Assembly: GCA_038065395.1 (NCBI GenBank)
Contig: JBBTRB010000002.1
Location: 50,647-114,646, forward strand
Direction of reading: 5' to 3'
DNA length: 64,000 bases
Origin: Patescibacteria group bacterium
Lineage (GTDB): Bacteria; Patescibacteriota; Minisyncoccia; Phycocordibacterales; PALSA-1337
Position 1 is the stretch's first letter. Each line of letters begins with the position of its first letter. The position numbers were made by a program, and so were the translations under genes. Positions 26,037 through 60,229 of this stretch are shown in pieces. A model generated the notes under the pieces. That model worked only from the letters and a program-made list of their open reading frames with translations. It was not told the DNA's origin and made no database searches.

Positions 26037-26064
26037 CGCAGATCCCCGCATTCGCGGGGATGAC
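26037..26064. repeat. 28-nt palindromic hairpin repeat (family GTCATCCCCGCG-N4-CGGGGATCTGCG), copy 1
   Basis: cgcagatccccgcattcgcggggatgac (reverse orientation). Confidence 0.8.
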
Positions 26065-26100
26065 TGCTACGTTATGATGTTGTGATGACAACGGACCTAA

Positions 26101-28245
26101 TTATTTTCGTTTTTCCGCGATCTCCTTCTCAACGTTCGCTGGTACTACTTCGTAGTGGTCGAATTCCATCATGGCACTGCCCTGACCGGAAGTCATAGAG
26201 CGTAGAGCTGTGGTGTAACCGAACATTTCTGATAGAGGCACCTTGGCATGGATAGCGATAGCCTGACCACGTGGTTCAGAACCTTCGACTTGACCGCGCT
26301 TGGAAGCGATGGAGCCGTTGACGTCACCCATGAATTTCTCTGGAGTGATGACCTCAAGCTTCATGATAGGCTCGAGGATCACAGGCTTTGCACGTCGAGC
26401 GGCTTCTTGGAAGGCCTGAGATGCAGCGATCTTGTAGGCGATTTCGGATGAGTCAACGTCGTGATATGAACCGTAGGTGAGCTCGCAAGAGACATTCACC
26501 AGTCTGAAACCGGCAACAATACCGCGGTCCATGGCTTCATGTACACCCTTTTCAACTGCAGGGATGAATTCTCCTGGGATAACACCTCCTTTGATCGAGT
26601 TGATGAATTCGAAGTCATCATAGCGCTTGATATGCTTGGGGATCTTCTCACCTTCTGGCCATGGTTCCATAGGCTTGATAGTGATCTTGACGTGACCGTA
26701 CTGACCTTTACCTCCAGTTTGCTTGATATATTTGTGTTCCGCCTCGGCAGTGCCCATGATCGTCTCACGATAGGCTACCTGAGGAGCACCGACGTTGGCT
26801 TCTACGCCGAACTCACGCTTCATACGGTCGATCATGATCTCGAGGTGCAGTTCTCCCATACCAGAGATGATCGTCTCACCTGTTTCTTGGTTAGAAGATA
26901 CACGGAATGTTGGATCTTCGTTACCGAGCTTCTTGAGTGCAAGACCCATCTTTTCTTGGTCGGCCTTGGTCTTTGGCTCAATACGGAGAGAGACCACTGG
27001 TTCCATGAACTTGATAGTTTCGAGGACGATCGGCTTGGTTTCGTCACAGAAGGTATGTGATGTCAGCGCGTCTTTGAGACCTACCGCAGCAGCGATCTCA
27101 CCTGCGAAGACTTTTTTGACCTCTTCACGCTTGTCAGCTTGGAGGCGGACGATGCGACCGAGGCGCTCTTTCTTGCCCGTAGTGGAGTTGTAGATATAGG
27201 TACCAGACTCGATAGATCCAGAATATACACGGAAGAAGGTCAATGCTCCGACGAATGGGTCGTTCTGGAGTTTGAAAGCCAATGCAGAGAACGGTTCTGT
27301 ATCAGATGGACCACGGAATACTTCTTCGCCTGTTTCTGGGTTGATACCTCTAACTGGTGGGATATCGAGTGGAGATGGGAGATAGTCGACAACCGCATCG
27401 AGAACGAGTTGTACGCCGACATTCTTGAGAGCAGATCCGGTGAATACCGGGAAGATCTTGTTGGCAATCACGGCCTTGCGAGTCAACGTCTTGAGTTCAT
27501 CCATAGTGAACTCTGCCCCTTCGAGGAAGCGGTTCATGGCAGCATCATCGGTCTCGACGATCTTTTCGATCATGATAGCGCGATATTTCTTGGCGTCAGC
27601 GAGCATATCTGCAGGGATTTCTTGTTCATTGATGACAATACCCTTCTCACCACTGAAGGTATATGCCTTCATGCGCATCAGGTCGACAACGCCGTTGTGG
27701 TCACCTTCGAGACCGATCGGGAGTTGGAAACGAACGGCGTTCTTGTTGAGACGTTCGAGTATCGAGGCATATGAACGCTCGAATGAGGCGCCGGTACGGT
27801 CCATCTTGTTGATGAAGCACAGACGTGGCACGTTACTCTCGTCAGCATAGCGCCAGTTGGTCTCGGACTGTGGTTCTACACCGGCTACACCGTCGAATAC
27901 GACTACCGCTCCGTCGAGTACGCGGAGCGAGCGCTTTACCTCTACGGTGAAGTCGATGTGCCCTGGAGTGTCGATAATGTTAAAACGGACTTTCTTGGAT
28001 ACATCTGTCGCTGGCATATAGGTCGGATTCCAGAAACAGGTGATGGCAGCCGCAGTGATCGTGATACCACGTTCGCGCTCTTGTTCCATCCAGTCGGTGG
28101 TTGTTTCACCTTCATGCACCTCGCCAATCTTGTGGATCATACCTGTGTAGTACAGGATACGCTCTGAAGTTGTGGTTTTGCCAGCATCGATGTGAGCAAT
28201 GATGCCGAAGTTACGCATTCTCTCGAGTGGGTAGTCGCGGTTCAT
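26101..28245 (-). CDS. fusA: elongation factor G
   Basis: AHIDAGKTTT, DTPGHIDF, NKMD. Length 714 aa. Confidence 0.97.
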   Translation of the reverse strand: MNRDYPLERMRNFGIIAHIDAGKTTTSERILYYTGMIHKIGEVHEGETTTDWMEQERERGITITAAAITCFWNPTYMPATDVSKKVRFNIIDTPGHIDFTVEVKRSLRVLDGAVVVFDGVAGVEPQSETNWRYADESNVPRLCFINKMDRTGASFERSYASILERLNKNAVRFQLPIGLEGDHNGVVDLMRMKAYTFSGEKGIVINEQEIPADMLADAKKYRAIMIEKIVETDDAAMNRFLEGAEFTMDELKTLTRKAVIANKIFPVFTGSALKNVGVQLVLDAVVDYLPSPLDIPPVRGINPETGEEVFRGPSDTEPFSALAFKLQNDPFVGALTFFRVYSGSIESGTYIYNSTTGKKERLGRIVRLQADKREEVKKVFAGEIAAAVGLKDALTSHTFCDETKPIVLETIKFMEPVVSLRIEPKTKADQEKMGLALKKLGNEDPTFRVSSNQETGETIISGMGELHLEIMIDRMKREFGVEANVGAPQVAYRETIMGTAEAEHKYIKQTGGKGQYGHVKITIKPMEPWPEGEKIPKHIKRYDDFEFINSIKGGVIPGEFIPAVEKGVHEAMDRGIVAGFRLVNVSCELTYGSYHDVDSSEIAYKIAASQAFQEAARRAKPVILEPIMKLEVITPEKFMGDVNGSIASKRGQVEGSEPRGQAIAIHAKVPLSEMFGYTTALRSMTSGQGSAMMEFDHYEVVPANVEKEIAEKRK

Positions 28246-28279
28246 AAAAATCTTAAAAATTAAATCTTAAATTTCAAAT

Positions 28280-28636
28280 CTATTTAGTAATATTTCTCTT
28301 CATGGTGATGATACTTGCCCCTAAGATGTCTGCTATTTCGTGAGTCTCCTTTAATAGTGGATCGGCTATTATTTTTTGTATCTTTCCCGTATCACGAGCT
28401 AGTCCGATCCACATCTTTGACTCATTGGCCGATTTGAGACTATACATATAGAAGTTTATATAATCTTTTCTAGAACTTGCCCCTTTAGCTTCAACAATGT
28501 TTGCCACCACAGAAGTACCGCTCCTCACTAATTGCTTTGCGATAACCTGAGCCGAAGTATCTCCAGTGAACCTGTCGACACATTTTACGATATTTATGGC
28601 GTATTTGTACAATCTCTGATCAAAATCTTTTTTCAT
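28280..28636 (-). CDS. four-helix-bundle protein (TIGR02436 / 23S-rRNA-intervening-sequence protein family)
   Basis: About 118 aa with ...VANIVEAKGASSRKDYINFYMYSLKSANES... resembling the family core. A paralog lies at 44985..45329. Confidence 0.75.
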   Translation of the reverse strand: MKKDFDQRLYKYAINIVKCVDRFTGDTSAQVIAKQLVRSGTSVVANIVEAKGASSRKDYINFYMYSLKSANESKMWIGLARDTGKIQKIIADPLLKETHEIADILGASIITMKRNITK

Positions 28637-28672
28637 CTTTAAGATTTGATTTTTAATCTTTTAGATTAAAAC

Positions 28673-29143
28673 TTACCACGCAAAGTGAGCAAAAGCCTTG
28701 TTGGCCTCGGCCATCTTGTGGACGTTTTCGCGTTTCTTGACGGCTTCGCCTTCATTCTTGGAAGCAGCAATGATCTCGTCAGCGAGTTTCTCGGCGATCG
28801 GCTTGCCCTTTTTGGAGCGAGCGGCTTCGACGATCCACTTCATAGAGAGAGACTGTTTGCGCTCTGGGCGAACCTCGCGAGGGACCTGATAGTTGGCACC
28901 ACCGACACGGCGGGAGCGCACTTCCATCTGAGGTGAGGTGTTCTTGAGAGCAGCTTCGAAAACCTCTATCGGATTCTCGACTTTGGCCTTCTCCTTGATG
29001 ACGTTCATACAGTCATAGACTGCGGTACGTGCAGTGTTTTTCTTGCCAGATTCCATCACATAGTTGATGAACTTTGAGATCTTGAGAGACTCGTAGGCTG
29101 CATCTGGATTGAGGGTGCGTTTTATATTGAGTTTACGTCGCAT
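28673..29143 (-). CDS. rpsG: 30S ribosomal protein S7
   Basis: Canonical uS7. Confidence 0.95.
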   Translation of the reverse strand: MRRKLNIKRTLNPDAAYESLKISKFINYVMESGKKNTARTAVYDCMNVIKEKAKVENPIEVFEAALKNTSPQMEVRSRRVGGANYQVPREVRPERKQSLSMKWIVEAARSKKGKPIAEKLADEIIAASKNEGEAVKKRENVHKMAEANKAFAHFAW

Positions 29144-29153
29144 AGTAGTTTAA

Positions 29154-29573
29154 TTATACTTTCGCTGCTTTAGGCTTCTTGTTGCCGTATTGACTACGAC
29201 CTTTGCGGCGCTTTTCGACACCAGCGCAGTCCAACACTCCACGAACGACAGAATAACGGAGACCTACATCCTTCACACGACCTCCACGAAGGAGAACCAC
29301 TGAGTGCTCTTGGAGGTTATGACCTTCGCCTGGAACATAGGCGGTCACTTCGACACCGTTGGAAAGGCGTACACGAGCGATCTTGCGGACAGCTGAGTTT
29401 GGCTTCTTTGGTGTCTTGGTGGTGACTTTGACACATACACCACGCTTGAATGGTGATGGGAAGAACACGGGCTGGTTCTTGATATGGTTGAACGTACGGG
29501 TCAAAGCAATAGACTTTGACTTGCGCTTGAACAACGTTCGATTTCTCTTGGTGAGCTGATTGATTGTTGGCAT
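29154..29573 (-). CDS. rpsL: 30S ribosomal protein S12
   Basis: MPTINQL...[26 protein letters not shown]. Confidence 0.95.
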
Positions 29574-29775
29574 TCTAATTACTAATTACCTTATTCTAGT
29601 TACTCCTTGTGGCAATCCTGAATTATTCACCGCTTTTGGTCTGAGATCCTCGAAATAATTCCGAGATACCGAGGCGATTACTCATTCTTGCCTTAATAAT
29701 GGCTATTTCCAAGGGATGTACCCATGGAGACAGTGATGTGTAACTTACCATAAGGGTCTGAAAGTGGCAATGTTT

Positions 29776-29796
29776 GGCCCAGGTCTGTCCTAGGCC
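29776..29796. repeat. CCTAGG-family element (reverse orientation, one CCCAGG half)
   Basis: ggcccaggtctgtcctaggcc. Confidence 0.6.
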
Positions 29797-30127
29797 GAGG
29801 CATGAAAAAGCGACCTCGAAAGGTCGCTTGAATACGAAAGGTGAAGGGTTGTCTTAGCGCACAACTCCCTGACGAGTATGGTGCCCTGGCTTCAAATGTG
29901 TCGTCAAACCATGAGCGAGGATAATCCTCGAAGGTCGATCCTCTGAATCGTGATCACCGAGCTTACGTTTAGCGCGCGCACTTGCAAGCCGCGCTTTATT
30001 CGAAGAACCATTTCGTGCCATACGTTAATCTCCTATAACAGATATGTGGTTTGTTTTCGTGGACAAGAAACAACGTCCATATACAAAAATATCAAATATT
30101 ACTAGTGTGTCAACTGGGTATAGCCAG

Positions 30128-30167
30128 CCCAGGTCTACCCTAGGTCATACCTAGGATAGACCTAGGG
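30128..30167. repeat. two head-to-head CCTAGG-family elements
   Basis: cccaggtctaccctagg-tcata-cctaggatagacctaggg. Confidence 0.6.
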
Positions 30168-30821
30168 TCACATCCCTAACCCTGTAAACAACCTGAATAC
30201 AAAAGGTACGAGTGGTGAGACCACTTGCCACAAGAAAAAGACAACCAGGAGTACGAAGATCGGTGCATACATCTCGAGCATGGCACGAACGTGTGCATAT
30301 CGGCGTGGCAAAATAGCAAAAAGGATTTTGGAGCCATCGAGTGGTGGCAGTGGGATGAGGTTAAAGATCGCCAGGATGATATTGATCGTGACGATATATG
30401 CCGACAGTTCGATGAACGCTATCGAAGCGACCGAATGCATCGATACGGCAAATCGTATGACCATACTGAAGACAAAGGCAATGAGAAGGTTCGATGCCGG
30501 ACCCGCCAATGCAATGAGGAGTTCGCCGCTGCGTCTATTCTTGAGATTATGCGGGTTGTATTCTACAGGTCGCGCCCAACCGAAGGTAAACCCGAGGAGT
30601 GACGTGACGAGTGGCACAATAACAGATCCTACTGGGTCCAGATGTCGAACCGGGTTCAGAGTCAGTCTCCCCTGCCGACGCGCTGTCGAGTCGCCGAGCC
30701 AGTCAGCCATATAGCCATGGGCAAGCTCGTGTACTACTACCGACATGATCAATATGACGATAGAGAGGATGATGAGCATCGTTTGATTATTGTAACCTGC
30801 CCATATCTTATTGCAATACAA
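30168..30821 (-). CDS. site-2 protease family (M50) zinc metalloprotease
   Basis: HELAHG in the first TM region. Multi-TM. LDGS-like LPPLDGSKI. The likely start is the internal Met at about 30779. Confidence 0.75.
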   Translation of the reverse strand: MYCNKIWAGYNNQTMLIILSIVILIMSVVVHELAHGYMADWLGDSTARRQGRLTLNPVRHLDPVGSVIVPLVTSLLGFTFGWARPVEYNPHNLKNRRSGELLIALAGPASNLLIAFVFSMVIRFAVSMHSVASIAFIELSAYIVTINIILAIFNLIPLPPLDGSKILFAILPRRYAHVRAMLEMYAPIFVLLVVFFLWQVVSPLVPFVFRLFTGLGM

Positions 30822-36276: not shown

Positions 36277-38019
36277 CTACACAACATCCACCACCCTCAA
36301 CCTCAACTCCGTCTTGCCTGCAAAATACGACTTCTCGATAGAAGCGACGAGGTCTAGAGAGACACCTTCGCTCACGGTATCTGCCCAAGGTTCTCCGACA
36401 CCAAAAAAGGCGATGGCTGAGAGTTTGTTGCCATTGGTCTTCTTGAAGACAAGCTCGATATGATCTTTGGCCTTGCCGAACTTGCGCACACTGACGGGAG
36501 TTACTTTTCGCAACAGGAAGAGCGGCTTGGGGTTGCCAGTACCAAAAGGCGAGAGACGGGCGATCTCTTGTTGGAGATGCCAGTCGACCATATCGAGAGT
36601 GAGCTCCATATCGACTATCTGTTTTCCATGTTCACTTTCTCCTTGCACCTTTTCCCTCGCCCCTTCCCTCTCTTTTGCCTCATTGAGATGTGCATCGAGA
36701 ACATGGATCATCTCATTGGCCACTGCAAACCCTCCCGAATGTGCATGTCCGCCAAAATGAGTGAACACCTCCGATGGCACCGCGCGCATCAGTTCGACGA
36801 TGTTAGTCTTGCCTTCGGATCTACATGAACCTTTGATGACATTGTCACCATCACGCCCCCAGAGGAAGACGGGTCGATCGAGTTCCTGTGCACATGAGTT
36901 TGCCACGAGCCCGAGGAGCGACGGTCGCCACAGCGGGTTGCCGAGGACGATGACCGACGGGATATGTTCGGCATAGCGTTCACGAAGTATTTTGTTCACC
37001 TCTTTGACGAGTGACGCCACCATGCCTTTGCGTTCGTTGTTGACCTCTTCAATACGAGTGACATGGACTTGGGCCTCAACTTCATCTTCGGTTGCAAGCA
37101 GGTTGAATGCGTCCATCGGCACTCCCATGCGCGATGCGGCATTGATACGCGGAGTGACCATGAAGGCGATATCGTCTTCACTGAGCGTCTTCTGAGCGAT
37201 CGAGAGCTTGGACAGGAGTCGCATCAGACCCTTGCGCGGACTCTTACGCAGAACTGCCAGACCGTAGTGCGCCAATGCCCTGTTCTCTCCGACCAGTGGC
37301 ACCATGTCCGAGAGTGTGGCGATGCCGACCATGTCGAGGAGCCATTTCTCATGGCCTTCTTTGAGACCTCGACGATCTTTCGCCAAGATGGCCTGGACGA
37401 GTTTGTAGGCAGTACCGGAACCACAGAGATTCTTGTCGGGATACATGCAGTCTTTCTGTTTGTGATTGATGATGGCATAGGCGGGAGGCACGACCAGTGG
37501 TGGTTCGTGATGGTCGGTGATGATCACGTCGATACCGAGATCACGCGCCCGAGTCACTGGCACTACGTCGGTCGAACCACAGTCGATCGTGATCATGAGC
37601 GTCACTCCCTGCCTTGCCAATTCTTCTACCGCATCGGTATGCACGCCAAATCCTTCGTCATGTCGATGAGGAATATAGACGATGAAGTTGGAGAAGTTGA
37701 TCCTCCGCAGGAAGTCCGCGAACATCACCGCCCCAGGGATACCGTCAGCATCATAGTCAGAATAAATCGCGATCTTCTCGCCCCTCTCTATGGCATGAAT
37801 GATCCTCGTAGCGGCTTTGTCTGCATCTTTCGACAAGAGCGGGTCATGCACATCGCGATCATAGTCGGGTGCGAGGAATCTCTGACCTTCGTGGTTATTC
37901 TTGACCCCTCGATGGAACAAGAGTTGTGCCGTCAGTTCAGAAAAAGCATTGAGTGGTTCACGCTCGGTCGACGAGAGTTGTGGTCGGATGGCGTAGGAGG
38001 AGGTGGGCATGGGGTGCAT
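36277..38019 (-). CDS. recJ: single-stranded-DNA-specific exonuclease RecJ
   Basis: DHH motifs (DYDADGI, ITDHHEP) plus DHHA1 and a C-terminal OB-like region. Confidence 0.9.
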   Translation of the reverse strand: MHPMPTSSYAIRPQLSSTEREPLNAFSELTAQLLFHRGVKNNHEGQRFLAPDYDRDVHDPLLSKDADKAATRIIHAIERGEKIAIYSDYDADGIPGAVMFADFLRRINFSNFIVYIPHRHDEGFGVHTDAVEELARQGVTLMITIDCGSTDVVPVTRARDLGIDVIITDHHEPPLVVPPAYAIINHKQKDCMYPDKNLCGSGTAYKLVQAILAKDRRGLKEGHEKWLLDMVGIATLSDMVPLVGENRALAHYGLAVLRKSPRKGLMRLLSKLSIAQKTLSEDDIAFMVTPRINAASRMGVPMDAFNLLATEDEVEAQVHVTRIEEVNNERKGMVASLVKEVNKILRERYAEHIPSVIVLGNPLWRPSLLGLVANSCAQELDRPVFLWGRDGDNVIKGSCRSEGKTNIVELMRAVPSEVFTHFGGHAHSGGFAVANEMIHVLDAHLNEAKEREGAREKVQGESEHGKQIVDMELTLDMVDWHLQQEIARLSPFGTGNPKPLFLLRKVTPVSVRKFGKAKDHIELVFKKTNGNKLSAIAFFGVGEPWADTVSEGVSLDLVASIEKSYFAGKTELRLRVVDVV

Positions 38020-38038
38020 TATACCTTATGTATTTTTT

Positions 38039-38066
38039 GTCATCCCCGCGCAGGCGGGGATCTGCG
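38039..38066. repeat. hairpin repeat copy 2
   Basis: gtcatccccgcgcaggcggggatctgcg, 20 nt upstream of the recJ start. Confidence 0.8.
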
Positions 38067-38434
38067 ATCTAGACCTTGAAATAAGGGAAAGATGAGGTAC
38101 TTGACAAATGTAATGAGTGTGCCATGATACTTGTGTCGACGATGTACCAATCGCGTCGATATCTAGGGAATAAACTTTATCTTCCTAGATGGTACGGCGT
38201 TCCTACTCCCTCCTTTCCAGGTTCGTCTGGAAAAAGGATTCGCCCGAAATAGTGAGGGTGCAGTACATACAAAAAGTGGTGCAGGCCATCGGGAACACAG
38301 GTTCCGGCTCGGGGTATCCATTCCCCATAAACAGCCATCCCGGCCGACAAAATAGGACACTTGGCACAGACGCAAGAGTCCTCCAACAATGATTCGCAAT
38401 TATCTTGTTGTAGATTAGCTATCCAATTGCGTCT

Positions 38435-38466
38435 GGCGTCGATCTCCGTGATCGACGCCTTTTTTC
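38435..38466 (+). terminator. rho-independent terminator closing a GC-rich non-coding region
   Basis: ggcgtcgatctccgtgatcgacgcc followed by tttttt, 40 nt upstream of the HIT gene start. Confidence 0.55.
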
Positions 38467-38506
38467 TTGTTCAAAATGACTAGGTTCGCGTGATATACTT
38501 TCACCC

Positions 38507-38884
38507 ATGACCCCCTGCATCTTCTGCAAAATCGTATCGAAAGAAATCCCTGCGCACGTAGTGTACGAAGACGACAACTTCCTGGCATTCCTGGATATCC
38601 ACCCGCAGTCACCTGGCCATACCCAGGTCATCCCCAAGCATCACTATCGTTGGGTCTGGGATCTACCCTCTTCTGGTGACGGAGCAACCATCGGCCGATA
38701 TTTCGAAGTTGCACAAAAAGTCGCGCTTGCTCAACAAAAAGCTTTTGCCACAGACTGGATCCTGAGCAAGATCGTCGGTGACGAAGTCCCTCATGCACAT
38801 ATCTGGGTGTTTCCGAATGACAAAGTAGAGGGAGATCCAATGGATTTTGAAACGAATGCAAAAAAGATTGTAGAAAATCTGTGA
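38507..38884 (+). CDS. HIT-family (histidine triad) nucleotide hydrolase
   Basis: HAHIWVFP histidine triad. N-terminal CIFCKI. Confidence 0.85.
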   Translation: MTPCIFCKIVSKEIPAHVVYEDDNFLAFLDIHPQSPGHTQVIPKHHYRWVWDLPSSGDGATIGRYFEVAQKVALAQQKAFATDWILSKIVGDEVPHAHIWVFPNDKVEGDPMDFETNAKKIVENL

Positions 38885-38885
38885 G

Positions 38886-38904
38886 TAGCGAGGTCGGACC
38901 TTGC
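38886..38904. repeat. 19-nt repeat TAGCGAGGTCGGACCTTGC between convergent stops of the HIT gene and pgk
   Basis: Identical to 36256..36274. A related ggcaaggtcaggccttgcc hairpin lies at about 34331-34349, after the rnhA stop. Confidence 0.7.
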
Positions 38905-40022
38905 TACTTCAACACCTCTACCCCCGGCAAAGTACCCGTACCCAAAAAGTCCAACATTGCACCACCACCCGTAGAGATAAAGTGGAACTTATCTTCGATA
39001 CCGAGCTCAGCTATAGCAGCCAGAGTGTCTCCGCCACCGACGATCGTCTCTGCGCCACGCGCAGTAGCTTCGCCGATCATACGTGCAAGCTCATGAGTCG
39101 GTTCGCGATAGCCGTCTTCGTAGAGACCCAAGGGACCATTCCAAAGGATGAACTCTGCTGTAGAGATCTTGTCTCGGAGAAGCTCGAGAGTCTGAGGTCC
39201 TGCGTCGAGAATCTTGTCGGTAGGTAGCACTCCAGTGGCAGGACGGATCTCTTTGCCTTCGGTCACGATATCGAGAGGAGTAAGGACTTTTGGATTGGCA
39301 ATAAACGCCGAGAGATCGATCTGCTTTTTCGAAACTAGAGAGGTGCCGATCTCGTAGCCTTTTTGTTTGTAGATGTCGTTGGCAAGAGCTCCCCCGACGA
39401 ACAACGTATCAGCAGTCTCGATGAATCGATGCAGGAGTGGGAGTTTGGTATCGAACTTGGCACCACCAAGTATAAAGAGGAACGGATGTCGTGGAGTAAA
39501 AGACTTGGAGAGATAGTCGATCTCTTTTTGTAGCTGGAGGCCTGCATACCCAGGAATGAGTGTAGGCACACCGACAACAGATGCATGCTCACGATGCGAT
39601 ACCGAAAAGGCATCATTGATGTACATATCTCCCAGAGATGCGAGTTCTTTGGCGAATTGCGGATCATTGATCTTCTCACCGTCATTGAACCGAAGGTTCT
39701 CAAGCAAGATACAGGAGCCGTTTTGTAGCTTGTCTATCTCGACTCGCGCGTTCTTGATATTTTTCACAAAGGTAACTGGTACGCCGAGTGATGCAAGAGT
39801 CGGAACAACTGGTTCAAGGGATTCATTCTCACCACTTACGGACTCGAGATGGCTCATGAGTACTATTCGTGCACCTCGTTCTCGGAGCCACATGATCGTC
39901 GGGAGCGCTGTGCGAATACGATAGTCCTCAACGACTTTGCCGTCTTTGAGGGGAACATTGAAGTCCACACGGACCAAGACGATCACTCCTTCTATATGTT
40001 CAATATCAGTAATCGTTTTCAT
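38904..40022 (-). CDS. pgk: phosphoglycerate kinase
   Basis: Canonical Pgk N- and C-domain motifs. Confidence 0.95.
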   Translation of the reverse strand: MKTITDIEHIEGVIVLVRVDFNVPLKDGKVVEDYRIRTALPTIMWLRERGARIVLMSHLESVSGENESLEPVVPTLASLGVPVTFVKNIKNARVEIDKLQNGSCILLENLRFNDGEKINDPQFAKELASLGDMYINDAFSVSHREHASVVGVPTLIPGYAGLQLQKEIDYLSKSFTPRHPFLFILGGAKFDTKLPLLHRFIETADTLFVGGALANDIYKQKGYEIGTSLVSKKQIDLSAFIANPKVLTPLDIVTEGKEIRPATGVLPTDKILDAGPQTLELLRDKISTAEFILWNGPLGLYEDGYREPTHELARMIGEATARGAETIVGGGDTLAAIAELGIEDKFHFISTGGGAMLDFLGTGTLPGVEVLK

Positions 40023-40060
40023 GAGGGATATTATAGCAGATGAAGATAGCGGACTGGCTC

Positions 40061-40825
40061 TTATATCACATCTACCGCCCGGAGTAATTCTACAAAACCA
40101 TCTATATGCACACTTTCTCTGCCCACCAGAAGCCCGTCGACTTTGCCGATAGTGATGATAGATGAGGCATTCTCAGCATTGACGGCACCACCATAGAGGA
40201 CTTTGATCTTGAGTGCGATCTCTGGTCCGAATATATCTGCGCAGATTTTCTTCACGAAGATACTCATTTCGCAGACTTGTTCTGGATTCATCGCTTCGGT
40301 AGCTCCGATCGCCCAGATCGGTTCGTAAGCGATAACGAGATTTTTGGCATGTTTTGCCTCGATCCCTGCCAGAGAACTACGGATCTGTTGCGTGAGTGTC
40401 TCGAGATATGTACCCGCATCGTCTCTCTGTCGTTCGCCAACACAAACGATCGCCATCATACCTTCATGTACGATAGCTGAGACACTTTTTGATACTTCTT
40501 CGTCGCTCACCCCGCGTGAACGTTCTTCAGAATGACCCGTGATGACATATTCAACCTTGAGATCACGGAGCATATGGACTCCCACTTCACCGGTATGAGG
40601 ACCCTCCTGGGTATAGGGCGATACCGACTGAACTCCGAGATACATATGTGGTGCCTCCGTCGAGGTATTGAAGCTCGAAATGAAAACAAATGGTGGACAT
40701 ACCACCACATCAGTATGGGCAAGTTCGCTTGCAGCTTGTCGTGTTTTGCGGACGATCACCTTGGCTTCATCGAGCGTAGCGGGATTCATCTTCCAATTAC
40801 CGACGACCAGTGTACGTTTTGACAT
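40061..40825 (-). CDS. tpiA: triosephosphate isomerase
   Basis: VVGNWKMN, GHSERR, AYEPIWAIG. Confidence 0.95.
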   Translation of the reverse strand: MSKRTLVVGNWKMNPATLDEAKVIVRKTRQAASELAHTDVVVCPPFVFISSFNTSTEAPHMYLGVQSVSPYTQEGPHTGEVGVHMLRDLKVEYVITGHSEERSRGVSDEEVSKSVSAIVHEGMMAIVCVGERQRDDAGTYLETLTQQIRSSLAGIEAKHAKNLVIAYEPIWAIGATEAMNPEQVCEMSIFVKKICADIFGPEIALKIKVLYGGAVNAENASSIITIGKVDGLLVGRESVHIDGFVELLRAVDVI

Positions 40826-40890
40826 GAGGGTATTTTAGCATAAACAGAAACGTGAAACTTTGCATAGTATTTATCATTCTTGCCTCTTTT

Positions 40891-40918
40891 GTCATCCCCG
40901 CGAAAGCGGGGATCCAGG
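40891..40918. repeat. hairpin repeat copy 3 (variant ...GATCCAGG)
   Basis: gtcatccccgcgaaagcggggatccagg. Forms an inverted pair with copy 4. Confidence 0.8.
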
Positions 40919-41047
40919 AGCAAGGGAGTGGCTACTTACTCAGATCTATATCATCACCAACCATTAGGAACTATCCCTGTAATTACATGCCGAACCTATC
41001 ATGTTCATTGTTTGTATAATCTAAGTCGACTATATACTTGAAGTGAT

Positions 41048-41075
41048 CCTGGATCCCCGCTTTCGCGGGGATGAC
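41048..41075. repeat. hairpin repeat copy 4 (inverted orientation of copy 3)
   Basis: cctggatccccgctttcgcggggatgac is the exact reverse complement of copy 3. Separated from it by a 129-bp AT-rich spacer. Confidence 0.8.
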
Positions 41076-41087
41076 ACCCTACAATTT

Positions 41088-42527
41088 TTACTGTACCTCC
41101 TGCCAAGAAATCGTTTGATACTGACTCGACGTCAATGGGAATGAAGGTGGTGGACCATAGAGTAGGTTGGTATCGTAGGTGATATTGCGTATATCATAGC
41201 CTGTGCCGTTGGTATATGCGAAACCATAACGTTGGTTGGTAGCAATCATGCCATAGAGGGTCAGAACATCGCGTTCATAGTATTCTGTTCCGCCAGATTC
41301 GCAGTCATCGTCATAGTAATAACGCCCCACACGACCATTCTGCGCCACCAGTGCCGCATCAATACGCAGATCATCTTGACTCCACATGCCGACATTGAAG
41401 TTACCTTGGGCGATGAGCGCGAGCACATCGGTACCGTCATATCTGGTATAGAGCACGTCGTCATTGACCGTGATACTCGTACGCGTAGAGGCATTATCAG
41501 GGAAACGTCCCGAGGCGATCGTGAGTCTGGCCCCATCTATTCTACCCTCGACCCAGACATGGTCTTCGACAAAGATGATACCGTTGCCCGGAAATGGGAA
41601 GTTGCCCAAAGATGTCTGGTTGTTGATACTCCATGTCCCCCACCCATCTTGGCTGGCAGAGTTGGTACAGCCGCTCGGTGCTGAGCGTAGTGAATTGACA
41701 CGATACAGATCGAACGTGTCATTGGTATTGAGACGAATACGATATCCTTGTGACCCAGATGCAGCGATATATCTACCACTAGCCTGAGCATCGGCTTTCA
41801 TTTGTGCCAAGTCGAAGGTCAACCCTGCGAAGTCAAAAGATTGCACCGGGAACTGTCTCCCTGCGATGAAGACGTCTGGTCGACTCGGTACAGCCGCAGG
41901 CGGGTTGGGGTCCACGGGCGAGACGGTCGTATACACACCGAACTTTTGTTGTGAATTGCCATCATCAGGATCGTCATATGTTACCTGGGAACTCGTCACC
42001 AGGTTATGTGCCACACCCTCGAAACGCACACCACCGTTGGAATGCACAGGACCAAAGATCTCGGTACCAGAACCAAAACGCATGTTGTTATTGGCAACTA
42101 CGGCAAACTTGGCCAGAGATGGTATCGCCAGTCGTGCCTGGATCTTGCGATAGATGGTCGGATTGGACTCGAGGACGCCTTTGGACAATACACCAACGAT
42201 CGTTGAACCGATCGGTGGTGGAGTGATCGTGAGTTCGAACTGTCCGATGACGGTGCCACCTGTATCTGTCACATCGTGAATATACGGACCAGGTACACCA
42301 GTACCATCGGTATAGTCGGTGGCCGCATGAGCTAGATGCCAGCGATAATATTCGACTCCGGCTTCGGCGAGTTGGAATGCCTGTTCTCGATCCGAGAGCG
42401 TGCGCGTCGTCTTGAGCACTGTGGCGCCCCAGTTGGTCAGGCCAATCGTGACCGTGATCGCAATCGATGCGAATACGAGTGCATTGATCAGGATCATACC
42501 CTTTCTATATATAGATGGAGTGGTCAT
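41088..42527 (-). CDS. pilus-associated protein with pilin-like hydrophobic N-terminus (minor pilin/PilX-like; lacks Glu5)
   Basis: KGMILINALVFASIAI N-terminus. 4-bp overlap with the upstream prepilin gene. Confidence 0.45.
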   Translation of the reverse strand: MTTPSIYRKGMILINALVFASIAITVTIGLTNWGATVLKTTRTLSDREQAFQLAEAGVEYYRWHLAHAATDYTDGTGVPGPYIHDVTDTGGTVIGQFELTITPPPIGSTIVGVLSKGVLESNPTIYRKIQARLAIPSLAKFAVVANNNMRFGSGTEIFGPVHSNGGVRFEGVAHNLVTSSQVTYDDPDDGNSQQKFGVYTTVSPVDPNPPAAVPSRPDVFIAGRQFPVQSFDFAGLTFDLAQMKADAQASGRYIAASGSQGYRIRLNTNDTFDLYRVNSLRSAPSGCTNSASQDGWGTWSINNQTSLGNFPFPGNGIIFVEDHVWVEGRIDGARLTIASGRFPDNASTRTSITVNDDVLYTRYDGTDVLALIAQGNFNVGMWSQDDLRIDAALVAQNGRVGRYYYDDDCESGGTEYYERDVLTLYGMIATNQRYGFAYTNGTGYDIRNITYDTNLLYGPPPSFPLTSSQYQTISWQEVQ

Positions 42528-43171: not shown

Positions 43172-44988
43172 TATGGTGCTAAGAGAACTTGATGTTCACT
43201 CCATGCATCTGTAATAGGTATGTCGACTGTATATGTGGCATACCCTGACTTTGAAACAGTCAGTGTATATGTTTCATTGTCGAGCAGATCAGCGAAGATC
43301 ACTTGTCCTGGTGGTACACAGTCCGAAGTATACGTGAATGACACATCCGACACATTGGGAGTAAAAGCGGGGTCGGCAGTTGCGAGATAGAGTCGATACC
43401 GTGCATATTGATGGTCCGCATGAATAGCACTTAACGATGAGTTCGATGAGGTGTAATACGTGGCAGCAGTTCCGTCTGGACCAACGAAGTTCCATGGTCC
43501 AGTGGGTGATGTACTGGCAGCGGTTGCGAACTGCATACGGACACTCTCTGCCCCTGTTTCTGCTGGCTGGTCGGTCGGTGACCAGATCAAAGAATAGAAG
43601 TTACTGTCAGATCCCGTATCGAACGTCGAGGATTCGAGCCACCCCGCTGGGTTATATGCCCCGAATATATTCCGAAGCATCACCTGCCCTGTCGAAGTCG
43701 CTACGTCAACATTAGTATCGTCAGCGAAATAGCGAGTCGCATCAGTGAAGGTGCTTTGTCCTGATCCACCCACCCAATTGGTTTGATTGATATACCCACG
43801 CCCCGTCTCGAACGTCTCGTCGTATCCGCCCACACCCGTGAGTTGCACAGTTACATCGGAGAGAGGTAGCTGAGTAGCACTGTCTTTGACAGTAACAAGG
43901 AGGCTCTGAGGATCCTTGGGTGCAACGATGAGCTGGAGCTGCATATCGGTGTCTGGGTTGACCGTGAATGGATTGAGCGGATTGATACCGATGAGGTCAT
44001 ATGCGGTATCGATAGCTGCAAACGTATATATATCCCATTCGAGTCCCGAGAGAGTGAGTGTGCCACTGCCATCAGTGGCATGATTGGAACCATATTTCGG
44101 CATTCCTGGACCATTCTCTTTGCCACTGGTCAGAGAAAAGTCAAAACTCGGGATCACCGAACAGGTCGGCGTGACACTACTGATGTGTACTGTACTGATC
44201 CTATCGATCGCAAAGCTGACCTGGGTCACCTGTTGTACCAAAACGGTTGCATCAGGTTTCGGGGGGATCGGGTTCGAAGTATCTGGAGGATAGGTACGAT
44301 CGGTCGAATATCCTGACTTGGTGACAGTGATACGGTACGCATTGACATCGGGCGGCACATCGACAAGCTGGAGGAGACCGTTAGCATCAGTGACGTCATT
44401 GATCTCGATCGTCGTCGTAGTGGTCGCAATGTTCTCTACGTTGACGGATACATTCTGGAGTGGCTGACCGTTGGCATCGAATACCCGGATGAAGAGTGCC
44501 CCGTTGGCCGATGCGGTCTCGAGATTCTTGGGTGCCACCTGGCCAACAAGCGTGATCGGCTGCATACCTCGACAGCCGTCACACGAGACAGTGATCTGTA
44601 CTTTCTTGTTATCCGCAGGAGAAAGATCGTTCGGCGTACCACCGATCGTCCCATCGAATAGGAGATCCACGTTACGTACGGTAGCAGTGACGGTAAAAGG
44701 TGTTCCCCCTCGAGTCAATGTTTGGATATGAGGTATTTTGCCCGGAGGGATACTGCCCTGAACGCCAACATCACTATACGGCAGGTTACGAGCGATCTCG
44801 AACTGTTCATTGGCAAGTGCCGTAGCAAGCACTCGATACTGACTCAGGTCAACGAGCTTAAAGAGACTCACGTATGCGTTATATGAAGCCAGCGCGATCG
44901 TCAAAAACACTGCAGTTCCCACGATCGCTTCAACCAAAGTGAAACCGCGACAATCAGTTTTTAAAGTTAGAAAGTTTTTAAAGTTCAT
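43171..44988 (-). CDS. large (605-aa) prepilin-type protein with beta-rich extracellular domains
   Basis: RGFTLVEAIVGTAVFL prepilin N-terminus. Carboxypeptidase-regulatory-like repeats (TVTKSGYSTDRTYP, TVSKSGYATYTVDIP). Confidence 0.65.
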   Translation of the reverse strand: MNFKNFLTLKTDCRGFTLVEAIVGTAVFLTIALASYNAYVSLFKLVDLSQYRVLATALANEQFEIARNLPYSDVGVQGSIPPGKIPHIQTLTRGGTPFTVTATVRNVDLLFDGTIGGTPNDLSPADNKKVQITVSCDGCRGMQPITLVGQVAPKNLETASANGALFIRVFDANGQPLQNVSVNVENIATTTTTIEINDVTDANGLLQLVDVPPDVNAYRITVTKSGYSTDRTYPPDTSNPIPPKPDATVLVQQVTQVSFAIDRISTVHISSVTPTCSVIPSFDFSLTSGKENGPGMPKYGSNHATDGSGTLTLSGLEWDIYTFAAIDTAYDLIGINPLNPFTVNPDTDMQLQLIVAPKDPQSLLVTVKDSATQLPLSDVTVQLTGVGGYDETFETGRGYINQTNWVGGSGQSTFTDATRYFADDTNVDVATSTGQVMLRNIFGAYNPAGWLESSTFDTGSDSNFYSLIWSPTDQPAETGAESVRMQFATAASTSPTGPWNFVGPDGTAATYYTSSNSSLSAIHADHQYARYRLYLATADPAFTPNVSDVSFTYTSDCVPPGQVIFADLLDNETYTLTVSKSGYATYTVDIPITDAWSEHQVLLAP

Positions 44989-45329
44989 AAAGTTTTTATA
45001 AATCCTGAAAGCATTTTTGAAATCTCAAGAGAAAGACCATATGTCTTTTCAAAATCTTTAGCATTTATACTTTTAAGATCCAGGGCCAGATACAACATAG
45101 ACCTAACTTCAGCACATGATCCTTTTGATATATAAAGAAACCTTCTCAGCTCTACATTTCCACTCCTTTCAAATCCTTCTGCAATATTATTCATAATAGA
45201 AACAGAAGCAGACTGAATTTGATCCCGAAATTTAAAATCTCTTGAATCTTTAAACAGTTCATACGTAAGCAAGGTAAGTTCTCTCGCCTTTTGCCATGCT
45301 TTGATATCTTCGAATCTTTTAATTTGCAT
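44985..45329 (-). CDS. four-helix-bundle protein (TIGR02436 / 23S rRNA IVS protein family)
   Basis: IMNNIAEGFERSGNVELRRFLYISKGSCAEVRSMLYLA is a strong match to the family core. Embedded inside the pilus operon. Confidence 0.85.
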   Translation of the reverse strand: MQIKRFEDIKAWQKARELTLLTYELFKDSRDFKFRDQIQSASVSIMNNIAEGFERSGNVELRRFLYISKGSCAEVRSMLYLALDLKSINAKDFEKTYGLSLEISKMLSGFIKTL

Positions 45330-55995: not shown

Positions 55996-56769
55996 ATGAA
56001 AAAACTTTTAACTATTGCGCTCTGCGCCGTGATACTCTCGACTTCAACAGTCGTAGCGGCTCGCGAAGGCGAAGAAGCGGGAGTTCCTGTACGTGCCGAG
56101 GCTTCGATCCGCACACAGCTCCGTGGACCAGAAGACAAGCCGGGTATGCCTCTCGGTGGACGTCTCATGAGCTCGACTACTCGTGCCGAGATCAAAGACA
56201 TACGTGTCGAAAACCGTGAGAAAGTCGGCGATATGCGCGTCGATGCTCGAGTACAGATGAAGGGTGCCTCTTCTTCTCAAGAAAGAAAAGACATTCGTTC
56301 CGGTCTCCGCAAAGACATCTTCAAGGCTCATCAGGCACGCCTGACTGCCCAGTTGACGCTCGCCCTCGATAACCTCAAGCAGATCCGAGCTCGTATCGCA
56401 GCTCGTATCGACAAAGCAGAGGCTAGTGGCCGTACTATGACCGATGCCAAGGCTCTGCTCGTTACTGCAGATGCCAAGATCACGCTCGCGGCGCAACAGA
56501 TCGATATCCTCGCCTCGTTCACTCCGCCAGTGGCAACGTCAACTGACACTTCTGCCGCAGCTGATGCCTCTGTCGAAGTAGAGCTCGAAAAGCCTCGCCA
56601 GGTCGCAGAGAATGCAATCAAAGCCGTGAAAGATGCCCGCAAGGCATTGGTCGAAGTTACTATCGCAGTAGCCAAGAACATGGGTATCCGATGTAACACC
56701 GAAGGTGAAGCTCTCAAGTGTCAGGCAACTACAGACACAACTATTAACGCCACCACTACAACTCCTTAG
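55996..56769 (+). CDS. secreted alpha-helical hypothetical protein
   Basis: Signal peptide (LLTIALCAVILSTSTVVAA). Helical A/R/K-rich body. Confidence 0.5.
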   Translation: MKKLLTIALCAVILSTSTVVAAREGEEAGVPVRAEASIRTQLRGPEDKPGMPLGGRLMSSTTRAEIKDIRVENREKVGDMRVDARVQMKGASSSQERKDIRSGLRKDIFKAHQARLTAQLTLALDNLKQIRARIAARIDKAEASGRTMTDAKALLVTADAKITLAAQQIDILASFTPPVATSTDTSAAADASVEVELEKPRQVAENAIKAVKDARKALVEVTIAVAKNMGIRCNTEGEALKCQATTDTTINATTTTP

Positions 56770-56786
56770 TATTTATTCATCCCACT

Positions 56787-57044
56787 ATGAATCCTCAACA
56801 ATCACCTGCAACAGAAACTTCCAAGACCAAGCCGATGATGATGCTCCTCACAGGCATCCTCGTCCTTATCATCGTCGTATTGTATATCTTCGCATCTCGA
56901 ACCCCATCGTCATCTCTCCCGAACGAGAACTTGACGACCGAGACCACCGAAGTCCAACCTGTCACCAATAGCTCTGACGACGTATCTTCGATCGAAGCAG
57001 ACCTCAATACTTCCATCACCGGACTCGACGAACAGAACTTCTAG
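56787..57044 (+). CDS. small membrane protein
   Basis: One TM (MMMLLTGILVLIIVVLYIFA). Terminator follows. Confidence 0.4.
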   Translation: MNPQQSPATETSKTKPMMMLLTGILVLIIVVLYIFASRTPSSSLPNENLTTETTEVQPVTNSSDDVSSIEADLNTSITGLDEQNF

Positions 57045-57071
57045 TATATTCTTCTCGAAACCGTACACGAA

Positions 57072-57095
57072 AGAGGGTTACGCCCTCTTTTTTGT
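57072..57095 (+). terminator. rho-independent terminator
   Basis: agagggttacgccctct followed by ttttttg. Confidence 0.6.
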
Positions 57096-57241
57096 TTCCT
57101 CTTGTCGTCTTGGTTTGATGAAAGGGCAAAATCGGAATAGTACATCTTGATGACACGGATATTTTTCTGCTGAAAAATTCCTAGTGCTCGCGCCAGTCGC
57201 GCTCGCAATGTCCTCAAAATGTACTATTCCAATTTTGCGGT

Positions 57242-58375
57242 GTGTACCTGAACATGTCTTGCAAATGTATGGCATATTCATGTAGACTGCTTTTCATGTC
57301 AAAAAACACAAAAACCTACACCTCCGCTGAGGTAAAAAGTCTCGACGCTTCACGCATCGAGATCACCGGAACAATCGCACCCGAAGTCTGGACGAAGCAT
57401 CGTGCTGCCGCCCTCAAACATATCAATGACTCCGTCACGATCGACGGCTTCCGCAAGGGCATGATCCCCGAGAACATCCTCGTTTCCAAAGTCGGTGAAG
57501 CCGCTGTCCTCGAAGAGATGGCCGAACTCGCTATTTCGAAAGCCTACATCGATATCATCGTCGACAACACGATCGACGCCATCGGTCGCCCAGAGATCCA
57601 GGTCACCAAACTCGCCCTCGACAACCCGCTCGAGTTCACTGCAACTACTGCTGTCATGCCGAACATTCTTCTTCCTGATTACAAAAAGATTGCTACAGAA
57701 GAAATAGCAAAAACTTCTGGTGAAGAAGTTGTCGTCACCGACGTAGAAGTCGACGAGGCCATCGTACGCATCCGCAAATCTCGCGTCTCACACGAAGGTC
57801 ACGATCATGGCACCATGACTCCCGAAGAGCACGACAAGATGGTCACTGACTCTATGCCAGAGCTCACCGATGCATTCGTAAAAAGTCTCGGCAAATTCGC
57901 CGACGTTGCTGACTTCAAGAAAAAGATTTCCGAAATGGTTCTCGAGGAGAAGAAGAACGCGGCCAACGAAAAGCGTCGCATCCGTATCGCCGACGCCATC
58001 TCTCTTGCAACCAAGATCGAACTACCGACCATCATGATCGACAGCGAACTTTCTCGTACCGAAGCACAATTCAAAAGTGACATCGAACGCATGGGAGTGA
58101 CTCTCGAGGACTATCTCAAGCATGCAAAAAAGACGATCGAGGATCTCCGTACCGAGTGGCGTCCTCATGCAGAGAAGAAAGCAAAGTTGCAACTGATCCT
58201 CAACGAGATCGCCAAGATCGAAAAGCTCTCCCCTTCTGCCCAAGAGATCGAAACCGAAGTCGGTCACATCGTCGAACACTACAAAGATGCTGACCGTGAA
58301 CGTGCCACCGTCTACGCCGAAACCGTTCTCACCAACGAAAAAGTTTTTGCTTTTTTGGAAGGTACGAAGAAGTAA
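57242..58375 (+). CDS. tig: trigger factor (short form)
   Basis: The ribosome-binding signature GFRKGMIP is present and the C-terminal chaperone arm is recognisable. The PPIase domain appears reduced or absent. The likely start is Met at 57296. Confidence 0.8.
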   Translation: MYLNMSCKCMAYSCRLLFMSKNTKTYTSAEVKSLDASRIEITGTIAPEVWTKHRAAALKHINDSVTIDGFRKGMIPENILVSKVGEAAVLEEMAELAISKAYIDIIVDNTIDAIGRPEIQVTKLALDNPLEFTATTAVMPNILLPDYKKIATEEIAKTSGEEVVVTDVEVDEAIVRIRKSRVSHEGHDHGTMTPEEHDKMVTDSMPELTDAFVKSLGKFADVADFKKKISEMVLEEKKNAANEKRRIRIADAISLATKIELPTIMIDSELSRTEAQFKSDIERMGVTLEDYLKHAKKTIEDLRTEWRPHAEKKAKLQLILNEIAKIEKLSPSAQEIETEVGHIVEHYKDADRERATVYAETVLTNEKVFAFLEGTKK

Positions 58376-58472
58376 GTCAGTTACATTTCATACATAAAAT
58401 ACTCTCTCGACTATGCAGCCGAGAGAGTATTTTCTTTGTGTGTGAAACATATACAAAAAACTCTCACCAGTA

Positions 58473-58673
58473 TTAGTGAGAGCGACTCCAACAACGTGCA
58501 CACATACCACCGGACTGACCTTCGTCTTTGTGAAACAGTTGATCACATTTACCGCATCTACCCTCCTCAACTCTTTGATCAAACAGAGAATTTGTAGATG
58601 GATATATTTTCACAGGAACAGGTGTAAGCGTAAGCCGCATGATCACCTGTCGAATCGTTGATATAAAACTCAT
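58473..58673 (-). CDS. possible small zinc-ribbon protein
   Basis: CGKCDQ...CARC. A minus-strand terminator hairpin (58455-58481) overlaps the stop. Confidence 0.25.
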   Translation of the reverse strand: MSFISTIRQVIMRLTLTPVPVKIYPSTNSLFDQRVEEGRCGKCDQLFHKDEGQSGGMCARCWSRSH

Positions 58674-58760
58674 TCTAAACTGATACTATCACTCCCTGTG
58701 ATATATGCAATGCATCGAAACATGTTTCACCACCGTCACGTCGTGTTCCCTAGTGAAACT

Positions 58761-59543
58761 TTACTTTGGAGCGAATACCACCAACGATAGGGCAGCAACA
58801 ACGGCGGTTTCTGTGCGTAGAATCTGCGAACCAAGACACTTCACTGGGATATTGTGTGTGTGAAACATCTCTATCTCCTGTGGTGACCATCCACCTTCTG
58901 GTCCTATGAAACAGGCAAGGTCAGCCTTTTGTGTCGTGTAACTTGAGAGATCTTCTCTCTTGAGTAGTTCTCCTTCGGTGTGAAACGCGATCTTCTGGAT
59001 GTTGGATGAGGTTGGTGAGGCAGGACCTTGCTGGAGCAAATCCTCCACGTCCAACAAGCCCATGATGGGATGCACCATAGGTATAGTGTCGCGACCGGAC
59101 TGTTCGCTCGCCTCAATTGCGATTTTATTCAAGCGCACAGCATTCAAAGATTTCTTCTCACTACGTTCGGCCATGACAGGGATAATATCTGTCACACCGA
59201 GTTCGGTTGCCTTTTCGACAATCCATTCGAAGGTATCTTTTTTGGTAATTGCTGCACACAAAAATAATTTCTGTTGAGTTGATGAACGACTCCGTTCCAT
59301 CGCAGTCACGCGCAGGCGTATGCTGTTGTCGCTAACTATAATACTCCCTGTATCAGAATCGTCAATCTTACATATGTAGTCAAAATGTGTTCCATTGAAG
59401 AGGATGATCGAGTCGCCTTTCTTGAGACGAAAAACTCGACGAACCTGGTGTACCAGTTCAGCCGAGTCTATCGTGAAAACATGTTCTGTATCTATTTTTT
59501 CAGTTGTGTAAAAACGATGGAGACGCATATATTGCAATTGCAC
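58761..59543 (-). CDS. rsmE: 16S rRNA (uracil1498-N3)-methyltransferase RsmE
   Basis: MRLHRFY..., GPEGGWS, LGSQILRTETA. The likely start is at 59528. Confidence 0.85.
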   Translation of the reverse strand: MQLQYMRLHRFYTTEKIDTEHVFTIDSAELVHQVRRVFRLKKGDSIILFNGTHFDYICKIDDSDTGSIIVSDNSIRLRVTAMERSRSSTQQKLFLCAAITKKDTFEWIVEKATELGVTDIIPVMAERSEKKSLNAVRLNKIAIEASEQSGRDTIPMVHPIMGLLDVEDLLQQGPASPTSSNIQKIAFHTEGELLKREDLSSYTTQKADLACFIGPEGGWSPQEIEMFHTHNIPVKCLGSQILRTETAVVAALSLVVFAPK

Positions 59544-59610
59544 TATTTAACCATTCAACAATTACTCCTACACTTTAATCTTTCAATGGTTTAATTGTTC
59601 AATGGTTGAA

Positions 59611-60192
59611 TTATTTCTTCACTGCCATGACCTGGTCGACGATGCCGTACTTCTTGGCTTCATCTGCATCCATGAAGAAATCTCGATCGACATCCTTCTC
59701 AACCTTCGAGAGAGACTGTCCGGTATTCTTGGCCAACATTTTGTTGAGACTGGCACGGATCTTGAGGATGTGTTTTGCGCTGATCTCGATATCAGATGCC
59801 TGACCTTCACTACCTCCATGTGGCTGATGGATCATCACTTCAGAATTCGGCAGTGCGTATCTCTTGCCTTTGGTACCAGCAGAGAGGATGACTGCCGCCA
59901 TCGATGCTGCCATACCGACGCAGACGGTCGAGATGTCGTTCTTGATATGCTGCATGGTGTCGATGATCGCCATACCTGCATGCACCTGTCCCCCACCGGA
60001 GTTGATGTAGAGTGAGATCTCTTTCTTGGGATCTTCGGACTGTAGGAAGAGAAGCTGTGCGATCACGAGGTTCGCCACATGATCATCGATAGGACCCCCG
60101 AGGAAGACGATACCATCTCTCAAAAGGCGTGAGTATATATCGTACGCACGTTCGCCGAAACTGGATTTTTCTATAACGGTTGGGATAAGCAT
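59611..60192 (-). CDS. clpP: ATP-dependent Clp protease proteolytic subunit
   Basis: Catalytic Ser context [11 protein letters not shown], His MIHQPHGG. Length 193 aa. Confidence 0.95.
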
Positions 60193-60201
60193 ATTATTTG
60201 T

Positions 60202-60229
60202 GTCATCCCCGCGCAGGCGGGGATCTGCG
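60202..60229. repeat. hairpin repeat copy 5
   Basis: gtcatccccgcgcaggcggggatctgcg, 10 nt upstream of the clpP start. 32/34 identical to copy 2 including flanks. Confidence 0.8.

Follow-up and report, generated by a model that had tools for sequence, protein, structure and literature searches.

Hairpins of the Neisseria Transformation Sequence family lie between the genes of a Patescibacteria genome, singly and in a 185-bp inverted-pair unit

Introduction

The Neisseria Transformation Sequence (NTS), with the consensus CGTCATTCCCGCGMAVGCGGGAATCYRG, is a short oriented hairpin recognised by the nuclease SsnA (Chenal et al., Nat Commun 2025, PMC11893778). Here, we describe five hairpins of this kind in a 64,000-nucleotide stretch of DNA (hereafter the window; contig JBBTRB010000002.1 of assembly GCA_038065395.1, positions 50,647 to 114,646) from a Patescibacteria group bacterium. 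Related repeats, collectively the Ssn-related motifs (SRMs), follow the published degenerate pattern HGTCWYN(0-2)YYVSBRHN(0-5)WNVSBRGN(0-2)RNCYNB, and the Ssn nucleases of NTS and SRM hairpins are proteins of ~95–100 residues made up of a single GIY-YIG domain (PMC11893778). SsnA itself is a 94-residue single-domain GIY-YIG protein (cd10448) with catalytic residues Y6, Y17 and E64. It binds the hairpin only as single-stranded DNA (ssDNA) and only in the forward strand, and its cut falls a few nucleotides upstream; the critical NTS positions are the three nucleotides 5' of the palindrome (GTC) and the C directly 3' of it (PMC11893778). In Neisseria, the Ssn system reduces transformation by NTS-flanked DNA and restricts incoming transforming ssDNA. 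The ssnA genes are usually flanked by the motif, and most Ssn homologues have been placed in Pseudomonadati (PMC11893778).

Hairpin copies in the window

The window was scanned with the pattern GTCATCCCCGCG-N4-CGGGGATCTGCG, allowing up to three mismatches, and compared with dinucleotide shuffles. The scan finds exactly the five dispersed palindromes that an earlier reading of this DNA (the original prediction) had picked out, and nothing in shuffled sequence. All five carry the 24-nt core GTCATCCCCGCG-N4-CGGGGATC without any mismatch, and relaxed searches with three mismatches allowed reveal no degenerate copies or isolated half-sites in the window.

Copy 1 (26037..26064, minus strand; loop GAAT, TGCG tail) lies 37 nt past the stop of fusA and 29 nt ahead of a 1201-residue open reading frame (ORF) with PKD and peptidoglycan-binding domains. 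Copy 2 (38039..38066, plus strand; loop GCAG, TGCG tail) adjoins the conserved -10 region of recJ at one end of the HIT–recJ spacer, 20 nt from the start of the recJ ORF. Copies 3 (40891..40918, plus strand; loop GAAA, CAGG tail) and 4 (41048..41075, minus strand) are exact reverse complements of each other. They form the terminal inverted repeats of a 185-bp composite (40891..41075, no strand assigned) that resembles a miniature inverted-repeat transposable element (MITE) and has an AT-rich core of 129 bp (37% GC). This composite sits 12 nt past the stop of a 479-residue ORF of the type IV pilus operon and 66 nt from the start of tpiA. Copy 5 (60202..60229, plus strand; loop GCAG, TGCG tail) is found 10 nt upstream of the start codon of clpP, which is on the opposite strand. 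With the HIT gene and pgk, these make up the housekeeping genes that flank the hairpins. Although coding sequence accounts for 87% of the window, all five copies fall between genes (P ~3e-4, counting four independent sites).

Folded as ssDNA, each copy forms an 8-bp stem (ATCCCCGC/GCGGGGAT) closed by a 4-nt loop (GCAG, GAAA or GAAT), with energies of dG -9.7 to -13.3 kcal/mol and z-scores of -2.7 to -6.1. The stem variants ATCCCCGC, ATTCCCGC, ATTCCAGC, ATTCCCAA and ATTATCGGG all pair perfectly. The intergenic placement, the stem and loop of these dimensions, and the perfect inverted pair across an AT-rich spacer had all been predicted and are borne out here. In a replicate assembly from Hainich groundwater (L122, position ~49-76, equivalent to 40891-40918 of the window), copy 3 has a single-nucleotide polymorphism in its loop (GAAG for GAAA on the forward strand) and an unchanged stem. 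This is population-level variation restricted to the loop of this copy.

Sequence beyond the window ends was taken from the Hainich groundwater metagenome-assembled genome (MAG) GCA_964357315.1, contig CAYHKE010000001.1 (761,713 bp; the source contig), joined to the window via exact protein matches. The window and its flanks cover 82 kb of this contig and contain seven copies of the hairpin, all of them intergenic. The window DNA is present in Hainich groundwater assemblies, and its triosephosphate isomerase is labelled 'Patescibacteria group bacterium' at NCBI. A ribosomal-protein block shares synteny with a contig of Candidatus Wolfebacteria (38-53% amino-acid identity). In one Logan assembly, both ends of a contig fall within hairpins, as is expected because the hairpin is a repeat.

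Comparison with the NTS/SRM family

Each of the five copies satisfies the published SRM pattern. The pattern also matches the window at two positions (2798 and 44661) that do not belong to the hairpin family, and shuffled sequences give 0-3 matches. Together with the T on its 5' side, copy 3 agrees with the NTS consensus at 25 of 28 positions, and two of the three differences amount to one compensatory change of a stem pair from T-A to C-G. The window copies, which read ATCCCC-N8-GGGGAT, differ from the consensus essentially by this stem pair, plus one tail base in three copies. Both the GTCAT 5' flank and the C that follows ...GGGGAT are kept in all five. The 3' tail is TGCG in three copies and CAGG in two.

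The similarity to NTS and SRM repeats extends to the whole architecture: an oriented 28-nt hairpin with a GTCAT head, an 8-bp stem, a 4-nt loop and a tail of the ATC-YRG type, found between genes, in multiple copies and often as inverted pairs (PMC11893778). Unlike NTS, the window copies have the C-G stem pair, the TGCG tail in three cases, and T or A rather than C at position -1; they reside in a Patescibacteria genome of ~0.8 Mb and include a doublet unit of defined length. The Neisseria repeat dRS3 (ATTCCC-N8-GGGAAT), together with the arrays of Neisseria intergenic mosaic elements (NIMEs), belongs to the same palindrome family. The two copies located just beyond the window (L145) match dRS3 exactly and the five inside it do not; we see here neither RS/NIME arrays nor a link to Nf prophage integration. 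Thus, the five hairpins represent a new host for a known element and not a CRISPR (clustered regularly interspaced short palindromic repeats) relic. The family itself was described in 2025; what this genome adds is a further host and a doublet with a defined length of 185 bp.

Hairpins and ssn genes in other genomes

One genome per species was queried for 20 specified core bases. At least 120 loci carry the exact 20-nt core; they belong to Alpha-, Beta- and Gammaproteobacteria, Planctomycetes, Gemmatimonadota, Fibrobacterota, Omnitrophota, Bacteroidota and three MAGs of the Candidate Phyla Radiation (CPR). In most of these loci it is present as a single copy, and in several as inverted pairs 46-66 bp apart. 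The core hairpin is also present in at least 120 viral or prophage contigs of IMG/VR (L163-L282). The dispersed family of palindromes proposed originally is therefore not limited to five sites; it is genome-wide and, in fact, crosses phyla. None of the 240 loci retrieved with the hairpin core contains a CRISPR array. The TGCG tail is absent from the 145 copies of the genome scan; a metagenome scan for this variant returned 15 loci, three of which are further Hainich contigs.

The ORFs next to the hairpins are mostly unremarkable. A Pfam scan of 150 of them gave 159 families of unrelated housekeeping genes, none seen more than three times, and the 25 families listed include no transposase. A single partner gene recurs beside the hairpins in other genomes, a GIY-YIG nuclease. 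Ssn-like GIY-YIG ORFs are present in 4 of the 120 genome loci and in 5 of the 120 viral or prophage loci, all fetched by the hairpin alone, and most of these ORFs have hairpins directly at their flanks (four of the five in the viral or prophage set).

The same hairpin–ssn–hairpin layout is found in CPR contigs. In L124, the exact TGCG-tail variant of the window lies 5 nt upstream of the start codon (ATG) of a 100-residue GIY-YIG gene, and an inverted variant hairpin directly follows the stop codon. Tyr10, Tyr21 and Glu68 of this protein have the spacing of the published catalytic residues Y6, Y17 and E64. A 1.03-Mb contig (L139) encodes a 74%-identical GIY-YIG protein next to dnaK in the same arrangement, and NTS-identical hairpins surround an ssn gene in contigs labelled Patescibacteria at NCBI (L140-L142, 30% GC).

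One further feature of the copies in other genomes concerns their upstream side. Directly upstream of 26 of 142 copies (18%; counted in L001-L120, e.g. L006 5044, L018, L040, L069, L078 and L114) there are one to three tandem repeats, with a period of ~18-21 nt, of a 6-10-nt flank plus the left arm GTCATCCCCGC. A comparable right-arm repeat occurs downstream of a single copy out of 142, and none of the five window copies has a left-arm repeat. The left-arm repeats fall on the side where Ssn reportedly cuts. Such one-sided half-hairpin duplications are not mentioned in the main text of PMC11893778.

The 185-bp unit and lineage-specific insertion

A second inverted pair, also exactly 185 bp long, lies ~7 kb past the window end on the same contig. 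The cores of the two units are ~80% identical, and their ends are identical except for the compensatory pair, which is T-A in both arms of the second unit and C-G in the window unit; the similarity stops at the GTCAT termini. Because this second pair with its similar core exists, the pair at 40891-41075 can be described as a repeated MITE-like unit. The original suggestion of a MITE-like configuration is strengthened accordingly, all the more so as the relatives lack it at this position. Like MITEs, the unit has inverted repeats at its ends and recurs at a fixed length; a target-site duplication is not evident at either copy.

In three syntenic relatives (triosephosphate isomerase 68-78% identical), gene order is kept from the pilus genes (pilB where reached) through tpiA, pgk, HIT and recJ, and RNase H, comEC and sod are also kept where the relatives' contigs extend further. 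None of the three carries an SRM hairpin in the 3.8-12.8 kb of sequence available. The spacer between the pilus genes and tpiA is 34-65 bp in the relatives vs 262 bp here, the relatives being too diverged to define a base-exact empty site, and the HIT–recJ spacer is 58-114 bp vs 487 bp. The -10 boxes beside the start codons are conserved between the window and the relatives. Since the relatives lack the hairpins and the -10 boxes are conserved, the hairpins appear to be lineage-specific insertions upstream of or between existing signals and, as judged from this sequence comparison, are not conserved regulatory sites. Taken together, the hairpin–ssn–hairpin layout, the non-autonomous doublets and the hairpin-free relatives fit an IS/MITE-like history, i.e. 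one resembling that of insertion sequences (ISs) and MITEs.

The extra DNA of the HIT–recJ spacer (38067-38506) contains a promoter-like site (38101-38128, plus strand) and a strong terminator (38435-38459, plus strand), and its RNA fold has a z-score of -3.9. It has no convincing ORF and no match in Rfam. This segment may encode an unannotated RNA of ~330 nt or may be decayed cargo beside hairpin copy 2.

Discussion

We consider it likely that the five hairpins are members of the NTS/SRM family that act as Ssn recognition hairpins and were acquired as short intergenic insertions. Once single-stranded, for example during uptake, replication or repair, the forward strand GTCAT-stem-loop-stem-ATC would fold into the hairpin. 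By analogy with the Neisseria enzyme, Ssn would bind this hairpin in a sequence-specific manner and nick the strand a few nucleotides 5' of GTCAT. The same action may take place in this Patescibacteria genome, which carries ComEC, type IV pili and RecJ in the window. The insertions, selfish or domesticated, would have entered the lineage either as single hairpins (TGCG tail) or as the 185-bp inverted-pair unit (CAGG tail). We infer an Ssn of the organism's own, encoded elsewhere in the genome, its cutting of these copies and the manner in which they spread.

Several observations speak against this interpretation. The TGCG tail departs from the YRG tail of NTS at one position. A search by regular expression, phmmer and a family hidden Markov model (built from 120 homologues) against six-frame translations finds no GIY-YIG/Ssn ORF in the window and ~9 kb on either side, i.e. 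in 82 kb of the 761,713-bp contig. Among the best 120 of 7073 Ssn homologues (58-100% identity), none is located on the source contig, and the four homologues that were traced to their source (P0002, P0005, P0087 and P0102) all come from other samples. It is from other genomes, then, that we infer the nuclease link for this organism. Furthermore, ~19% of SRM-rich genomes have no ssnA (PMC11893778). The lack of a nearby ssn gene, the absence of listed homologues from the source contig and this precedent would also suit orphan SRM relics, that is, family members in a genome without an active Ssn, left inert by a past invasion or brought in with horizontally acquired DNA. We regard such relics as unlikely, if worth serious attention. 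In all seven copies seen in the source contig, the 8-bp stem pairs perfectly and the GTCAT and ATC flanks are complete; neither degenerate copies nor half-sites accompany them. Between the two 185-bp units, the cores have diverged by ~20%, whereas the changes in the two arms are coordinated and compensatory. Intact stems and compensatory changes next to diverged cores suggest continuing constraint or turnover, not decay.

Host regulation is a different kind of explanation, in which the hairpins would serve fusA, recJ, tpiA and clpP in cis as terminators, attenuators or operators. Behind fusA, copy 1 has the score of a weak intrinsic terminator, copy 5 is 10 nt from the clpP start codon, and the relatives carry an ordinary terminator hairpin at the place of copy 4. 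However, the orthologous spacers of the three syntenic relatives are free of SRM hairpins and otherwise keep their promoters; the -10 boxes of tpiA and recJ are located between the hairpin and the ATG, which puts the hairpin outside those mRNAs; and the orientation of the hairpin relative to the neighbouring gene is inconsistent, with the identical sequence standing beside unrelated genes in many phyla. A regulatory role thus appears improbable. Equally to be weighed is whether the hairpins are attachment or target sites of an IS110/Piv-type recombinase or a filamentous phage. This idea is compatible with recognition by Ssn. The core of NTS is dRS3, for which a phage recombinase is cited as acting on it (PMC11893778), and the core hairpin is common in viral or prophage contigs of IMG/VR. 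No recombinase or phage genes adjoin any window copy, though, and the copies are intact and uninterrupted, so we give this possibility very little weight.

The two partner systems named in the original prediction, a RAYT/IS200-like transposase and a Cas locus, are not what is found beside the hairpins. Repetitive extragenic palindromic (REP) elements, bacterial interspersed mosaic elements (BIMEs) and REP doublets (REPINs), which may be domesticated selfish elements, are short intergenic palindromes, GC-rich, single or in inverted doublets. Their dedicated enzyme, the REP-associated tyrosine transposase (RAYT; Y1, IS200/IS605-like), is present in single copy and recognises them as hairpins in ssDNA. 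These traits are shared with the SRM hairpins. In contrast, the SRM partner is a GIY-YIG enzyme rather than an HUH Y1 transposase. The head motif of REP elements is of the GTAG type, and the conserved 5' motif here is GTCAT. No transposase, Y1 included, is encoded among the annotated ORFs of the window, and the gene that recurs near the hairpin elsewhere is the small nuclease, with no transposase in the families listed for hairpin-adjacent ORFs; mobilisation by RAYT is accordingly highly improbable. The resemblance to a type I-E CRISPR repeat (as an orphan repeat, a mini-array or a CreTA-like module) comes from the GC-rich CCCCGCG-N4-CGGGG stem-loop of similar size, a core common to type I-E repeats; the literature retrieved with it includes papers on an actinobacterial I-E system and a Corynebacterium genome. 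It is a mere likeness of the stem. The window copies show no repeat–spacer periodicity, being inverted or separated by 2.8 to 19 kb, no Cas family is found among the annotated ORFs of the window (as had been noted before), and in hundreds of loci this 24-28-mer stands alone, dispersed and not arrayed. The 3' handle of type I-E repeats differs from the flanks found here, GTCAT and ATC(TGC/CAG), and these flanks, with the C after the palindrome, are those of NTS and SRM, whose published partner acts on ssDNA and not on RNA. A CRISPR origin is the least probable of all the explanations considered.

Whether Ssn might do more than restrict DNA is a separate matter. It is conceivable, though we think it doubtful, that SRM hairpins, and the 185-bp unit in particular, are non-autonomous mobile elements propagated in trans by Ssn as a hairpin-specific ssDNA cut-and-copy enzyme, that this module crossed phyla into streamlined CPR genomes, and that the one-sided duplications are repair scars of Ssn cutting. 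If true, Ssn-driven propagation would be a transposition-like system with a class of nuclease not known to mobilise such repeats. How the repeats multiply is a question left open by the published work, and one on which the lineage-specific insertions, the 185-bp doublet with its second copy and the half-hairpin duplications all bear.

The assignment to NTS/SRM disposes of a false CRISPR lead and puts the repeats in a family that was characterised biochemically in 2025. The Ssn/SRM module is documented in Patescibacteria, and comEC, recJ and type IV pilus genes all lie in the window studied here. Patescibacteria are believed to rely on DNA uptake, and recombination in these bacteria could be shaped by a nuclease that cuts incoming ssDNA carrying the self mark. 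Furthermore, a near-identical 24-28-mer spread across phyla is a source of candidate enzyme/site pairs for ssDNA tools.

Neighbouring genes

Searches for other functional elements in the window gave little. A tRNA scan found none, Rfam has no match for the whole window at gathering thresholds nor for 37900-41300 at E<=1, and a promoter scan shows no excess over shuffles. The ATGACA made by the hairpin end is at no usable distance from the -10 boxes. Copy 1 is followed by CTGCGTTTTA, which accounts for its weak terminator score, and could act as a weak terminator.

The -10 boxes of tpiA and recJ (TAAAAT and TATAAT, in 40826-40850 and 38010-38035) end 7 nt before the likely ATG and are kept in the relatives. 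Their position suggests that the tpiA and recJ mRNAs are leaderless, and the recJ start is probably the second ATG, at 38010.

The genes fusA and tuf are usually expected side by side. Here, the 1201-residue ORF with peptidoglycan-binding and PKD domains (22403-26008, minus strand) is located between them, with hairpin copy 1 on its upstream edge. The type IV pilus operon contains a gene of the 23S_rRNA_IVP family (PF05635; 114 residues, 44985-45329, minus strand) between pilC and a 605-residue ORF, a junction at which two relatives (L151 and L154) have no gene. Finally, ~0.6-3.9 kb beyond position 1 of the window (L148, 6114-9422), genes for a Pif1-family helicase, a DpnI-like protein and an EVE-domain protein adjoin the ribosomal protein operon; this cluster may be a methylation-dependent restriction or defence islet.

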